A stretch of DNA of 64,000 nucleotides from Alphaproteobacteria bacterium (GCA_031426355.1 JANPLD010000045.1:11121-75120), one strand, 5' to 3'; shown: positions 17,851 to 35,830, numbered from the stretch's first letter. Numbers and translations are program-made. Notes: generated by a model from the sequence alone, not told the origin.

Positions 17851-17902
17851 AGTTACTATACAGTTACTAATGCAAAGTTACTAACCGGAGAAAAGTTACT
17901 AA
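17851..17902. repeat. Four AGTTACTA repeats (arm-type sites of site A)
   Basis: AGTTACTA at 17851, 17862, 17876, 17894. Confidence 0.85.
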
Positions 17903-17940
17903 TTGTACTTATCTACTTACTTTTTAGGCAAATCTTAAGA

Positions 17941-18207
17941 TTAATTTCTAATTCTAGTGTTATCTATTTCTATTGCTTTTGGTCTAAGTGGTTCCTGATA
18001 AGTACCTTCTGCCACTCTTTTTGCTATATCCTTTCCTCTTATTGCAACTTCCTCACTAGTTAAGGATATCTCGGGTGGCTCAATATTTATACCTTTATAA
18101 AAGATTATCTTGAAAGAATATAATTCATAAAATTGAAATAAAGCCTTTAAGTATGCAGGATCTTTTTCTCCGTTAGCATATCCACTTGCTTCTGGCTTTT
18201 CTGGCAT
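17941..18207 (-). CDS. Hypothetical protein, possibly C-terminal fragment
   Basis: 88 aa ORF enclosed by a 42-bp direct repeat. Confidence 0.4.
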   Translation of the reverse strand: MPEKPEASGYANGEKDPAYLKALFQFYELYSFKIIFYKGINIEPPEISLTSEEVAIRGKDIAKRVAEGTYQEPLRPKAIEIDNTRIRN

Positions 18208-18217
18208 AGGAGTTACC

Positions 18218-18259
18218 CAGTTACTAATGTAAAGTTACTAACCGGAGAAAAGTTACTAA
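18218..18259. repeat. Second copy of 42-bp arm repeat (17861-17902), one mismatch
   Basis: CAGTTACTAATG(C/T)AAAGTTACTAACCGGAGAAAAGTTACTAA. Confidence 0.92.
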
Positions 18260-18270
18260 ATACTAATATA

Positions 18271-19293
18271 TTATAATCCCAAGCCATCAGTTAGGTTATT
18301 TATTTTGCCTTTCATAACAGGGCTATATAATTTATTTACCAAAGAAGGTAGTAAAGCGTCATTGGTTACTAACTCAGATAAATTATCTCCATCCTGCTTT
18401 AAGGTATCTAAAATAGTGTTGATATTTTTTGCTATTTCAGGTGTCCAGTTTACTGCAGGATTATCCGTCATAATGCTTGAAAACCCTACTATTTCTTGAT
18501 TCTCTGCTTTAAATCCTTTTAAAAATTTTATTTCTTCAGGAGTTAAGCCTTCATTATCAAAATCTTTTAATTTCTTTATGGTATTAGCGATTTCAGTATA
18601 TTCATCGCAGCTTAGCTGTTTTTTTGGATCTAAAATTGCATTTTCTATTTTGGGTTTACGATCCATATTTTTATAGCCGCCTCTATTCGGCAGCCCTAAT
18701 TCCTTTGCAAAGCCATCGGTAAAATCTGTAACATTTTCTTCAATTCTCTGAAAACTAGCAGTAGTTTCTCTAAGGATTTTTTCCGCACTATCTTTATCAA
18801 CGCTGAACTGCTTTGCGTAGTTTTCATAGTCTCCAAATATGCCGGAAGCATGAGTAAGCTCATGAAAAAAACGCTCTATAGATGGTGAATAACTAACTTC
18901 AGGGTCAGAGGTATTTTGAGCAACCTCCTGATTAAAATTTACTACTACATAACGTATATTTTTGTGTCCAATATCTTGTGGGCGCAAAATTCCTATTCCA
19001 TGCTTTTCAGCTATTTCCTCCCGTGCAAATGGCGTTATTCCAACTGGTATGAAATCAAAGCGGTTCCTTATTTCCGGGCTGGCCTGGACACTTTCATTGA
19101 ATCCAAAAACTTCCAATTTTTCATTCCTGCCTGTACCATCATTAAATAATGCATTGTCCTTAATGTACTTAAATACATCTTGACCTTTATCGCTATTTTC
19201 AATGGTGCATAACCATGCTTCCAAAGCATCTCTTACTTCTGGTATAGCGCAATTTATAGTTATTACATCTTCCCAGTTTATTTTATCCGGCAT
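18271..19293 (-). CDS. Hypothetical protein with HExxH zinc-metallopeptidase motif
   Basis: 340 aa; FFHELTHASG followed by EENVTDFTDGFAKELG. Confidence 0.6.
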   Translation of the reverse strand: MPDKINWEDVITINCAIPEVRDALEAWLCTIENSDKGQDVFKYIKDNALFNDGTGRNEKLEVFGFNESVQASPEIRNRFDFIPVGITPFAREEIAEKHGIGILRPQDIGHKNIRYVVVNFNQEVAQNTSDPEVSYSPSIERFFHELTHASGIFGDYENYAKQFSVDKDSAEKILRETTASFQRIEENVTDFTDGFAKELGLPNRGGYKNMDRKPKIENAILDPKKQLSCDEYTEIANTIKKLKDFDNEGLTPEEIKFLKGFKAENQEIVGFSSIMTDNPAVNWTPEIAKNINTILDTLKQDGDNLSELVTNDALLPSLVNKLYSPVMKGKINNLTDGLGL

Positions 19294-19335
19294 AATTCAA
19301 ATATTATATTGGAATGTAAGTTTACCACAAAAAGG

Positions 19336-19350
19336 TTAATATGCAGTTAA
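19336..19350 (-). promoter_or_regulatory. CtrA-type box TTAA-N7-TTAAC
   Basis: Minus strand TTAActgcataTTAAC, 43 bp upstream of the 340 aa ORF. Confidence 0.5.
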
Positions 19351-19585
19351 TCTTAAGGTTTATTTGTATATGTTATTCAAATTGATCATGCCAATTAGGT
19401 TATAATTTCTTTATTTATCACCACATAGCCTGCTGTATCATAACCCACTGAAACGTAGTAATATTCCCTTGTTTTTGCCTCTGGATGCAATATCTGGTGG
19501 CTATAAGGAATTATTATAAATTATGCCGGTAGCACATATTACAAAGAAGTTTGTTGATGGAATTAAATATCAGGGGAAGCAGGAG

Positions 19586-19828
19586 TTATTCCACGACAAT
19601 AAGTCCAGCTACAAATGCCGCAATCCCTTCCGTTATGCCTAGATTTGTAAAATGCGCTAGGGTTAATGCAGGAAACTCCCAAACTGTTACGCCCTTTATT
19701 AATTCTCCAAATAAGGTATCGCGGGCGCTAACCATTTCATTTTGATACTCGCGCATTTTAGGCACCAACTCAGTAGCTATTAATTTTGTAATAGCATCAG
19801 AAACGTTGTCGTTATTTATCTCATCCAT
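19586..19828 (-). pseudogene. Hypothetical protein fragment
   Basis: 80 aa ORF back-to-back with a truncated PLD gene; looks like a C-terminal remnant. Confidence 0.35.
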
Positions 19829-19839
19829 TTCAGCGGCTA

Positions 19840-33928: not shown

Positions 33929-33991
33929 AAAAGCATCTAATTACAACCCCGAGTATATAAGAAAACTTTTTATAGTCTAATTAAGTTATAA

Positions 33992-34130
33992 AAGTAAGGC
34001 CTTAGTAAGGCTGCGGTTTAAAAAGGTGCTGGCCTTGTATAAAAAAAGATTTGGAGATTTTTCGGTTTAACTCCGTTTAGAGCTAGAGTTTAAAAAGGCC
34101 ATATAAGCTTTTAAAATCAGAGGCTTGGTT
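33992..34130. repeat. Arm W copy; AGTAAGG pair within 33992-34010
   Basis: Inverted homolog of 27360-27499. Confidence 0.92.
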
Positions 34131-34175
34131 TTCCTAAACCGTAGGCCGGATGTTCGAATCATCTCGTTCCCACCA
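34131..34175 (+). mobile_element. Site F: 3' half of tRNA-Arg(CCU), CGTTCCC allele (attR-like)
   Basis: TTCCTAAACCGTAGGCCGGATGTTCGAATCATCTCGTTCCCACCA. Confidence 0.92.
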
Positions 34176-34195
34176 TTATGATTTTTAAAATAGTA

Positions 34196-35401
34196 TTAAT
34201 TCCTCTGTTTTCCAGGAGTTTTAAGTTTTTCAGCTTCTTTTTGAGCTTGTTCTATTACGTCCGCTTCATATCTGGCCTTTAAAGGAGCAACATCAAGAAA
34301 ATAAAAGATTATATTTTTTTCAATAGAAGCAATTGTCGGTTTATAACCCGATTCCATTGCTACTTTAAACGCGCTAAATTTGAATTGCTCTTGCTCTTCG
34401 CTATTGAATGGTAGTTTTAGTGCTTCTCCTAAATAATATTCTGCTGTTTTGGCACATGCATTTATATGATATGTTAATGGCAAAGTAATTTTATCATCAT
34501 TGAATGCGATAGAGATTCTTCCTGCGGTAATACAATCATAAGGAAATCCGCCTTCAGTGATTTTTCCACCCACCTCTTGGTCTATCATCATAACAGCTAC
34601 CATTGAGTTGTTATCTGCTATTTTAGATTTATATTTCTTGTATGGCTCAGGAAGACTTATGGAATGGTTTGTTGTTTCAATATTTGTGTTACCAAATACT
34701 ATTCCAACATGTACAGGAAGATTCTTTGCATCCATATAGAATTTAAAATTCAGCTTATCACTTGGAAATAGGTCGTTTCCATTTTTATCCTGCGCCTGTA
34801 TAAGAAGCCCTGCATATAAAGAGGCCATAGTATTACAATCAGCAGCTCCTTTATTTTTTTGAGTAGGGTCAGATATACCTTTGTAAAAAGCCGGGTTATT
34901 TGCCACGGTTCTGGTGTGCTCAGACATAAATAAATTTGCTGCAAATAATGATTCCTTCTGCTCTTGGCTTAAACCTTCTAAGCCTTTTCCTGCACTAATT
35001 TTCCATTGGCCATATGATGATTCCTGCTGACCAAATTTTATTTTCTTTTTAGTGTATGTTGCAGGGTCATTACGAACCAAGTTATATTCATCAACCATCT
35101 TATCCCAGTTATCGTAAAAATTTTTTCTTTCTTCAGGAGTATCTAAATTTTCAAAGCCTTTATATTTCCCAGAGTTATAAATTAAAATAGGTACTAACCC
35201 ACCTTCTTTAATAAGGTCACTAACTGCATTCCTGTAATTTAAAAGATCAGCCTTAGTGCCAGACTTAAGATATTCTAAAGCTTGCTCATATTTTTCCTCA
35301 AAATTCTCCGGTGTCTTTAAGATTCTGTTCGTATTAAAAGAAATATCTTGCAAAAGTTCTGGATTTTTCTTTAACAACTCTTGAATTATTTCTTTAGACA
35401 T
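34196..35401 (-). CDS. Hypothetical protein with transglutaminase-like Cys-His core
   Basis: KGAADCNTMASLYAGLL ... PVHVGIVFG...NIETT. Confidence 0.55.
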   Translation of the reverse strand: MSKEIIQELLKKNPELLQDISFNTNRILKTPENFEEKYEQALEYLKSGTKADLLNYRNAVSDLIKEGGLVPILIYNSGKYKGFENLDTPEERKNFYDNWDKMVDEYNLVRNDPATYTKKKIKFGQQESSYGQWKISAGKGLEGLSQEQKESLFAANLFMSEHTRTVANNPAFYKGISDPTQKNKGAADCNTMASLYAGLLIQAQDKNGNDLFPSDKLNFKFYMDAKNLPVHVGIVFGNTNIETTNHSISLPEPYKKYKSKIADNNSMVAVMMIDQEVGGKITEGGFPYDCITAGRISIAFNDDKITLPLTYHINACAKTAEYYLGEALKLPFNSEEQEQFKFSAFKVAMESGYKPTIASIEKNIIFYFLDVAPLKARYEADVIEQAQKEAEKLKTPGKQRN

Positions 35402-35456
35402 AATTTCTGCTTATTCTGATTGGTTTATTACTGCACTATAATGTAACACAAAATCA

Positions 35457-35471
35457 TTAAGAAACTATTAA
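35457..35471. promoter_or_regulatory. CtrA-type box TTAA-N7-TTAA
   Basis: TTAAgaaactaTTAA upstream of the 401 aa ORF. Confidence 0.4.
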
Positions 35472-35526
35472 GATTAACAAAATAATAGGGATAAAGTATG
35501 ATTTTAAATACCGGAAATACACTATA

Positions 35527-35642
35527 AAAGTTACTATAGAGTTACTAATCAAAAAATTGCCTGATTTTGCGATGATGAGATAAGGAATAAGCCCTTATAA
35601 TGATTGAATAATCTAAAAATCTGAACTTTTTGGACTCACTGA
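35527..35642 (-). repeat. Arm X copy; GTTACTA at 35530 and 35541
   Basis: Inverted homolog of 20133-20249. Confidence 0.9.
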
Positions 35643-35681
35643 TTAGGAAACCGACGCTCTATCCAGCTGAGCTACGACCCC
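35643..35681 (-). mobile_element. Site G: 5' half of tRNA-Arg(CCU), GGGGTCG allele (attL-like)
   Basis: Minus strand GGGGTCGTAGCTCAGCTGGATAGAGCGTCGGTTTCCTAA. Confidence 0.92.
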
Positions 35682-35738
35682 AATAGATTTGGATTCGGAA
35701 AATATACTAAACTTTTAAAAATGCAATTCTTTAGAAAA

Positions 35739-35830
35739 CCTTACTATAGCCTTACTTTTGGGTTTTCTGTATTGGATTTAAGGCAGAATAATCAGTAAAT
35801 ACAAATTGTTATAAAATTTCAACCCACTTA
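35739..35830 (-). repeat. Arm Z; CCTTACT at 35739 and 35750
   Basis: CCTTACTATAGCCTTACTT. Confidence 0.75.

Follow-up and report, generated by a model that had tools for sequence, protein, structure and literature searches.

Paired direct repeats as putative integrase arm-type sites at a tRNA-Arg(CCU) locus in Rickettsiales

Introduction

The tyrosine integrases of phages lambda and L5 recognize, besides a short core, arm-type direct repeats located on both arms of the attachment site of the element (attP; P1, P2 and P'1-P'3 in lambda), which are bound by a separate N-terminal domain. Here we describe pairs of short TTACT-containing repeats that accompany pieces of a tRNA-Arg(CCU) gene in a 64,000-nucleotide stretch of DNA (hereafter, the window; contig C45:11121-75120) from a Rickettsiales bacterium, a member of the Alphaproteobacteria. 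These pairs are most probably arm-type sites in the attP arms of small elements with P4-like heterobivalent tyrosine integrases. The layout resembles that of lambda and L5 in that the repeats occur on both arms, tens of base pairs to ~140 bp from a short core, in copies about one helical turn apart. Unlike in lambda, the motif (TAGYAA followed by C or GG) and the geometry (-140/-129 and +80/+91 or +102/+113 relative to the core) are lineage-specific, there is one pair per arm (with two extra distal copies in one of the families) instead of the 2+3 sites, and the arm-binding domain belongs to the P4 type (PF13356), not to that of lambda.

The fate of the target gene is best compared to tRNA-dependent lysogeny, where actinobacteriophages such as Fionnbharth (Cluster L; Guerrero-Bustamante and Hatfull 2024) disrupt and replace a tRNA gene; in these phages, the short core lies between pairs of putative arm-type sites, and many mycobacteriophage att cores are located in the anticodon loop (PMC10865867). 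The elements considered here share with these phages the short core inside a tRNA gene that is not rebuilt, the carried tRNA of the same isotype and the flanking arm-site pairs, and, by analogy, appear to belong functionally with tRNA-dependent lysogeny. They differ in being ~9.5-kb elements of Rickettsiales with a VapE primase, ankyrin/Sel1 cargo and a 7-nt core, and in the apparent re-use of the replacement tRNA as a target, which yields nested, scrambled arrays. No capsid or tail genes were detected in the complete 9.5-kb element of genome G009, a member of the same family, and in this respect it does not look like a temperate phage.

Another relevant system is KplE1 (CPS-53) of Escherichia coli, with IntS and TorI, which resides in argW: the 16-nt core is at the 3' end of argW, the tRNA is regenerated, and the IntS arm-type (P') sites, with a conserved TAAA in the motif, overlap the integrase promoter (PMC2951348). 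The target, tRNA-Arg(CCU), is the same here, and the promoter-overlapping arm sites are reminiscent of the TAGCAAC pairs 22-43 bp upstream of the integrases described below; in contrast to KplE1, the core is a 7-nt loop, the tRNA is not rebuilt and the arm motif is different. The affinity to the P4 family is apparent from the PF13356 and PF00589 domains of the G009 integrase and from integrase relics in the window that match its C-terminus. However, whereas classical P4-type islands occupy the 3' end of a tRNA gene and restore it, the sub-lineage described here would cross over in the anticodon loop without restoration. Arm-type sites are textbook knowledge and the mechanism is known; what is new is the lineage and the setting, an element that splits its target tRNA and carries a spare copy.

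Repeat pairs and tRNA-Arg(CCU) pieces in the window

The window belongs to a 2.25-Mb genome (136 contigs, 38.6% GC, 98% complete) from a freshwater-sediment metagenome, the sole run that holds the locus. ARAGORN identified one intact tRNA-Arg(CCU) gene in the genome (site D, 33101-33177, plus strand), and BLAST and repeat searches detected six more pieces, all between 17.6 and 35.9 kb of the window and none elsewhere in the genome; a tRNA-Arg(UCU) gene, which might cover AGG codons, is also present. Every tRNA-Arg(CCU) piece ends or starts with the anticodon loop TTCCTAA, the 7-nt core. Lone 3' halves with the core are found at site A (17685-17729, minus strand; allele 'T' with the acceptor strand CGATCCC, core at 17723-17729) and site C (27315-27359, minus strand; 100% identical to the intact tRNA), both attR-type junctions, and at site E (34131-34178, plus strand), which closes a 998-bp mini-island. 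Lone 5' halves with the core are found at site B (20094-20132, plus strand; allele 'T', GGGGTCG), an attL-type junction, at site F (35643-35681, minus strand; allele 'T') and at site G (35831-35869, minus strand), the outermost attL-type junction, beside gpsA. Site H (24367-24382, minus strand) is a remnant that consists of the core and the 5' strand of the anticodon stem, with no recognizable P' pair downstream.

The assembly was checked against Logan contigs from the source run, in which rare isomers are invisible. These contigs match the window from A to the core of B, at 21675-24623 and at 32684-36069. The depth of a 46-nt unitig of the 3' half, 26.8 compared to ~8.3-8.6 locally, fits three copies of this half.

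An earlier note, made from the sequence alone, listed eight TTACT pairs in this region, and all eight were found at the coordinates it gave. Exact GTTACTA pairs (family 1) are located at 17852/17863, 20228/20239 and 35530/35541, and exact CCTTACT pairs (family 2; AGTAAGG on the other strand) at 27481/27492, 33993/34004 and 35739/35750; the pairs at 24640/24651 (CCTTACT/CCTTATT) and 32461/32472 (ACCTACT/CCTTACT) are degenerate. Six exact TTACT-N6-TTACT matches are present in the window, compared to 0.25 expected, and none of 100 shuffles reaches this number. Across the genome, TTACT pairs at spacing 11 number 19, six of them inside this 18-kb locus, and control spacings of 5-24 yield 3-16 matches, with only extra family-1 copies contributing at the locus. 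When exact 7-mers repeated at a distance of 8-15 bp were sought without prior choice of motif, the sites were recovered at period 11 only, plus period 14 for the extra copies at site A. As for the frequency of the motif away from tRNA halves, which the earlier note had singled out as decisive, all three GTTACTA-N4-GTTACTA occurrences in the genome and three of the four CCTTACT-N4-CCTTACT occurrences map to the locus, the fourth lying within a coding region without a tRNA piece. Matches to the looser pattern on contigs C31, C34, C8 and C129 were dismissed as chance matches, being in coding sequences with neither tRNA context nor any context in common.

Geometry of the arms

Offsets were counted from the first base of the core (0) in the tRNA sense, in which the motifs read TAGTAAC (family 1) or TAGTAAGG (family 2). 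The pairs are found on the P side (A, C and E) and on the P' side (B, F and G) of the core, in the same orientation on both arms, and the measured offsets agree with the orientation and core distances that had been reported from the sequence alone. The P pair starts at -140/-129 at both A (family 1) and C (family 2; 27481-27499, minus strand, TAGTAAGGCCCTAGTAAGG), and at -139/-128 at E (family 2; 33992-34010, plus strand, AAGTAAGGCCTTAGTAAGG). The P' pair starts at +102/+113 at the family-1 sites B (20228-20245, plus strand) and F (35530-35547, minus strand), both of which read TAGTAACTCTATAGTAAC, and at +80/+91 at the family-2 site G (35739-35757, minus strand, AAGTAAGGCTATAGTAAGG); the P' positions of the two families differ by 22 bp, that is, two repeat periods.

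The family-1 P arm of A (17852-17901, minus strand) contains four copies of TAGTAAC in the tRNA sense, at -129, -140, -154 and -172, the proximal two forming the 11-bp pair. The two distal copies (17877 and 17895) had escaped the earlier note, as had a 42-nt duplicate of 17861-17902 at 18218-18259 (minus strand, 98% identical) with three TAGTAAC copies at 18220/18234/18252.

The proposal that two arm families share one tRNA target is upheld by these measurements. The families have in common the core, the TAGTAA half-motif, the 11-bp period and the P-arm position, but their P' distances differ and their spacers are unrelated: the 121-nt P spacers are 29-36% identical, the chance level for this composition, yet the P pair is at the same place. 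By this comparison, family 1 may represent a separate integrase specificity.

Related elements in other genomes

A DNA search within the same family retrieved a family-2-like arm in G009, where it is part of a complete element. The element starts with the tRNA 5' half and the core, followed by the P' arm (AAGTAAGGTAATGGTAAGG at +80/+91), a DUF2806 gene and a full tRNA-Arg(CCU), and continues with a VapE-type primase, a 397-aa integrase, an ankyrin/Sel1 protein and the P arm, in which the same 19-mer occupies -140/-129; the core and the 3' half come last. A search of the order with the G009 integrase yielded a second element, in genome G255: the P' arm that adjoins the host 5' half and core contains TAGCAAGGCGATAGCAAGG at +80/+91 and is followed, 17 nt on, by a full tRNA-Arg(CCU) of a different allele, and, at the other end, the same 19-mer TAGCAAGGCGATAGCAAGG recurs at -140/-129, ahead of the core and the 3' half of the host gene. 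These two halves (GTCCCCG/CGGGGAC) co-vary with one another but not with the element's own tRNA, from which they differ. A pattern search detected the same layout at the tRNA-Arg(UCU) loop CTTCTAA in two further genomes. In the attR-type site of G081 (C5:203380-203540), the loop is exactly 139 nt past the AG of the first repeat. In G134 (C31:1160-1400), the site is of the attL type: the loop, at -81, precedes the pair, and a full tRNA-Arg(UCU) comes after another 17 nt. The reversed pattern, used as a control, had 0 matches in six genomes. The lineage apparently switched between two arginine isoacceptors, tRNA-Arg(CCU) with the loop TTCCTAA and tRNA-Arg(UCU) with the loop CTTCTAA.

The offsets -140/-129 and +80/+91 are the same to the base in G009, G255, G081, G134 and the window, except for site E, which is 1 nt off. 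The 18-19-mer that contains the pair is near-identical between the two arms within each element and differs between elements, with the motif variants AGTAAGG/GGTAAGG, TAGCAAGG and TAGTAAGG each matched on both arms of one element. In G009, G255 and the window, only TTCCTAA is shared, and the arms adjoining the core are not tRNA-like. A full tRNA-Arg(CCU) is carried inside the G009 and G255 elements, and a full tRNA-Arg(UCU) after the attL-type site of G134. In an alphaproteobacterial metagenome-assembled genome (MAG; locus L057), TAATAAGGCTATAGTAAGG, a TAATAAGG/TAGTAAGG pair, is located ~120 bp upstream of a tRNA 3' half, beside an integrase 52% identical to that of G009. This comparison, with the same pair at the same offsets on both arms of intact relatives, supports the interpretation of the pairs as arm sites that the earlier note had put forward.

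The integrases themselves point in the same direction. That of G009 contains PF00589 and an N-terminal PF13356 (Arm-DNA-bind_3) domain, and that of G255, with a PF00589 match, is 64% identical to it. Pairs of the form TAGYAAC-N4-TAGYAAC are common in the order. In genomes G197, G205 and G238, one TAGCAAC-N4-TAGCAAC pair lies 22-43 bp upstream of an integrase with PF13356 and PF00589, and another is found on the same strand at a distance of 8-17 kb, where the 3' end of a tRNA gene (Ala, Met) is ~50 nt away; this far-end pair is identical in G197 and G205, and in G238 only the 4-nt spacer differs. These elements look like classical 3'-end integrating islands with a related arm motif, and, judged by these genomes, TAGYAA-type 11-bp pairs appear to be a recurrent companion of the PF13356 integrase class.

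TAGCAAC pairs are widespread in Rickettsiales (G197:C47, G205:C77, G238:C5, G002:C12, G003:C1 and others; loci L148-L152).

A second motif, GTTTAAAA(A), has fixed positions at -116, -43 and, usually, -22 in all P arms of the family-2 type, and none in family 1. It was seen at 27360-27480 and 34011-34130 of the window and in the P arms of G009, G255, G081 and G255:C117, and may be a bend site or a site for an accessory factor, either integration host factor (IHF) or excisionase.

Integrase relics and decayed sites in the window

Searching the window with the G009 integrase (tblastn) produced two C-terminal relics only, at 22822-23004 (minus strand; residues 331-391, 62% identity) and 24485-24616 (minus strand; residues 348-391, 82% identity). 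No PF00589 match was obtained at 17-36 kb, and when the 11 integrases of this genome itself were used as tblastn queries, nothing significant was detected at 17-37 kb. As no cognate integrase survives other than as C-terminal relics, the sites in the window are best regarded as fossils of nested, rearranged elements.

Two of the pairs lack a core, and the earlier note's designation of both as decayed sites was borne out, as each aligns with the family-2 P arm. The first is an orphan P-arm fragment (24627-24664, minus strand) with the degenerate pair 24640/24651, which appears to have been fused by a deletion to the adjacent integrase relic at 24485-24616. The second is an orphan decayed P pair (32461-32479, minus strand) that reads AGTAAGGCGTTAGTAGG in the tRNA sense and has the distal flank TTTTTCTCATACTCTT in common with the first. 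A C-terminal relic of a PLD-family nuclease (19795-20067, plus strand; PF13091, E 3.5e-15) lies directly upstream of the 5' half of site B, and a putative second PLD-nuclease fragment, recognized by eye from its resemblance to the first (24367-24501, minus strand), is located upstream of the tRNA piece at H, between the 24485-24616 integrase relic and the site H remnant.

Conservation of the arms and alternative explanations

An alternative to arm sites is that the pairs have no function of their own and are merely att-arm DNA copied by descent, the 11-bp period being an accident of one ancestral arm. Whole arms at the locus are indeed similar, with 81-87% identity between B and F and 88-93% between C and E, so that many pairs in the window are paralogous rather than independent. 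However, conservation is uneven along the arm: when site C is aligned with G255, identity drops from 79% over the pair block to 52% over the spacer and 18% past the pair, the P' arms behave alike, and distal flanks beyond the pairs are in general 18-34% identical. Furthermore, families with unrelated spacers both hold the pair at -140/-129, and the motif variant changes between elements while remaining matched across the two arms of each. With these observations, descent by itself is an unlikely explanation. The end of conservation at the outer edge of the pairs implies that they delimit a conserved attP that extends from about -140 to +99 (~240 bp). The size of this unit is comparable to that of the lambda attP.

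The pairs could, instead, bind another protein of the element, namely, an excisionase (recombination directionality factor), a repressor, or an initiator that uses them as iterons for the VapE-type primase. A VapE primase-helicase is encoded in the G009 element, iteron-like clusters occur near related integrases in Algihabitans and Kordiimonas, and the TAGCAAC pair overlaps the likely integrase promoter, a position that would also suit a regulator. Iterons and excisionase sites are usually clustered on one side, whereas the pairs flank the core on either side with a common orientation and constant distances across elements with different cargo. The integrases of G009 and of the TAGCAAC elements carry a dedicated arm-binding domain, and there is precedent for an integrase arm site at a promoter, KplE1 IntS (PMC2951348). 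Another binding protein thus seems improbable, to about the same degree as descent alone. Finally, that the pairs are sites of a host nucleoid protein or transcription factor, found near tRNA pieces by coincidence, is highly improbable given that the other matches in the genome are in coding sequences without shared context and that the reversed-pattern control found nothing.

The alternatives are less consistent than arm-type sites with the two-sided, fixed-distance layout. We favor arm-type sites because of the position, constant to the base among genera, the same orientation on both arms, the match of motif within each element, the point at which conservation stops and the association with PF13356. 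Several observations weigh against this interpretation. The P arms of the family-2 type are homologous, and part of the positional conservation reflects shared descent. For family 1, neither an integrase nor an intact element was found: DNA searches of the same family returned only the window's own copies, and a metagenome scan with TTAGTAACTNTATAGTAACTT gave four loci, none of which had a TTCCTAA core at the right distance or a tRNA piece. No close homologue of the G009 integrase was found in this genome, and the case for arm sites does not extend to activity here. Simple nesting does not account for the present order of the sites, as the family-2 pairing G-C interleaves with the family-1 pairing F-A, and unobserved rearrangements must be assumed; no single inversion gives clean nesting, and synteny with G012 and G011, of the same genus, is too rearranged to reveal the ancestral order.

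Proposed mechanism and implications

Under the arm-site interpretation, the integrase would consist of the N-terminal Arm-DNA-bind_3 domain and a C-terminal catalytic domain, with strand exchange confined to TTCCTAA, the 7-nt loop that contains the anticodon of tRNA-Arg(CCU). We infer from the conserved layout that the N-terminal domains bind the pairs, ~130-140 bp upstream (P) and 80-113 bp downstream (P') of the core, so that a bent intasome would form in which the integrase bridges the arm pairs and the core. Because attP and the bacterial attachment site (attB) share only the 7-nt loop, integration splits the tRNA gene: its 5' half is left next to the P' arm, and its 3' half next to the P arm. 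The element supplies its own full tRNA-Arg copy and, with it, a fresh attB, and hence later elements could insert into earlier ones; an attP might also have as its partner a tRNA copy of the same DNA molecule. Such events, repeated and followed by deletions, would give rise to the eight sites of the locus.

What were short repeats becomes a testable map of attP, in which a 7-nt core has the P pair at -140/-129 on one side and the P' pair at +80/+91 or +102/+113 on the other. Very few genetic tools exist for Rickettsiales, and an integrase with its attP and an attB at the tRNA-Arg anticodon loop could become an integration vector. The strategy of disrupting and replacing a tRNA extends to small, non-phage-like elements of Alphaproteobacteria, and the build-up of arrays of tRNA halves can be explained by element-borne tRNA targets.

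More tentatively, and with odds that we put well below even, the locus might be a self-renewing landing pad, to which each element brings an attP and a fresh attB, resulting in tRNA-based accumulation and shuffling of cassettes. If so, new elements would insert in the manner of Russian dolls, with the arm pairs as fixed docking points in an intracellular bacterium, and recombination between an attP and a tRNA on the same molecule could invert host or cargo blocks such as the stretch from A to B (2.4 kb) or, between C and D, the MHYT phosphorelay block.

Nesting and rearrangement of the locus

Site F starts 57 nt past the P' pair of site G, which is the place of the element-borne tRNA in G255 and G134. 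This position indicates that F derives from an element-borne tRNA that was itself split when a family-1 element later inserted, and it provides direct evidence of nesting.

The acceptor stems provide a weak but consistent signal, resting on a single compensatory position: the 5' halves B and F pair with A at 7/7 positions, and D pairs with C and E at 7/7, compared to 6/7 for cross-combinations. The acceptor strand of site G forms 6/7 pairs with the C/E-type 3' half compared to 5/7 with A. When B is joined to A in silico, the result is an arm-core-arm junction with both family-1 pairs correctly placed; the joined tRNA is accepted by ARAGORN, as is every combination of halves, and this test is not discriminating. 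Judged by this junction, the B/A arrangement would have been the expected product of an attP-by-tRNA inversion.

A perfect 49-nt direct repeat (33132-33180 / 34130-34178) bounds the 998-bp mini-island closed by site E. The only gene of this mini-island is an open reading frame (ORF) with a TIR domain (33368-33928, minus strand; PF13676, E 1.2e-9).

A 570-nt Logan contig (run X1; depth 3.3 compared to ~8.3 locally) joins the upstream flank of D (33065-33100) to ~35632-35682. The D flank, on the opposite strand, is followed by an F-like 5' half, the core and the beginning of the family-1 P' arm, the match being broken by a single mismatch and a single deletion; this contig could be an inversion isomer or come from a related strain.

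A type IV pilin-like gene with an N_methyl motif (21916-22818, plus strand) is located between the inverted cores B and H. Its counterpart in G012 (contig C3) is near gpsA, and the relative orientation of the gene is opposite in the two genomes. Such placement suggests inversion of host DNA into the island.

Other features

The 42-nt direct duplication at site A (17861-17902 / 18218-18259) brackets an 88-aa orphan ORF (17941-18207, minus strand), and this unit could have been inserted as a cassette, or could represent a small accessory gene for recombination. The cargo ORFs of 88, 340, 401, 409, 136 and 182 aa had no informative matches in Pfam, PHROGs or NCBIfam, the only hits being weak sub-threshold ones to PDH_C (E 0.0017) and to phrog_407 of unknown function (E 6.5e-4). 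A candidate decayed P' arm upstream of tRNA D (AAGTAAGAC at 33028) was dropped, as its alignment was unconvincing.

In Algihabitans albus (L060) and a Kordiimonas MAG (L061), TCGCGGG clusters are present at ~13650-13800, ~2.5 kb downstream of integrases 37-38% identical to that of G009. Their architecture is different, iteron- or operator-like, and they were not used as support for arm sites.

A separate island at a tRNA-Glu(UUC) gene (56918-58500) encodes an intact P4-like integrase (PF00589 at ~57946-58458). The integrase is preceded by three GTTCAT repeats 10-11 bp apart (~57245-57275), which are probably this island's own set of arm-type sites.

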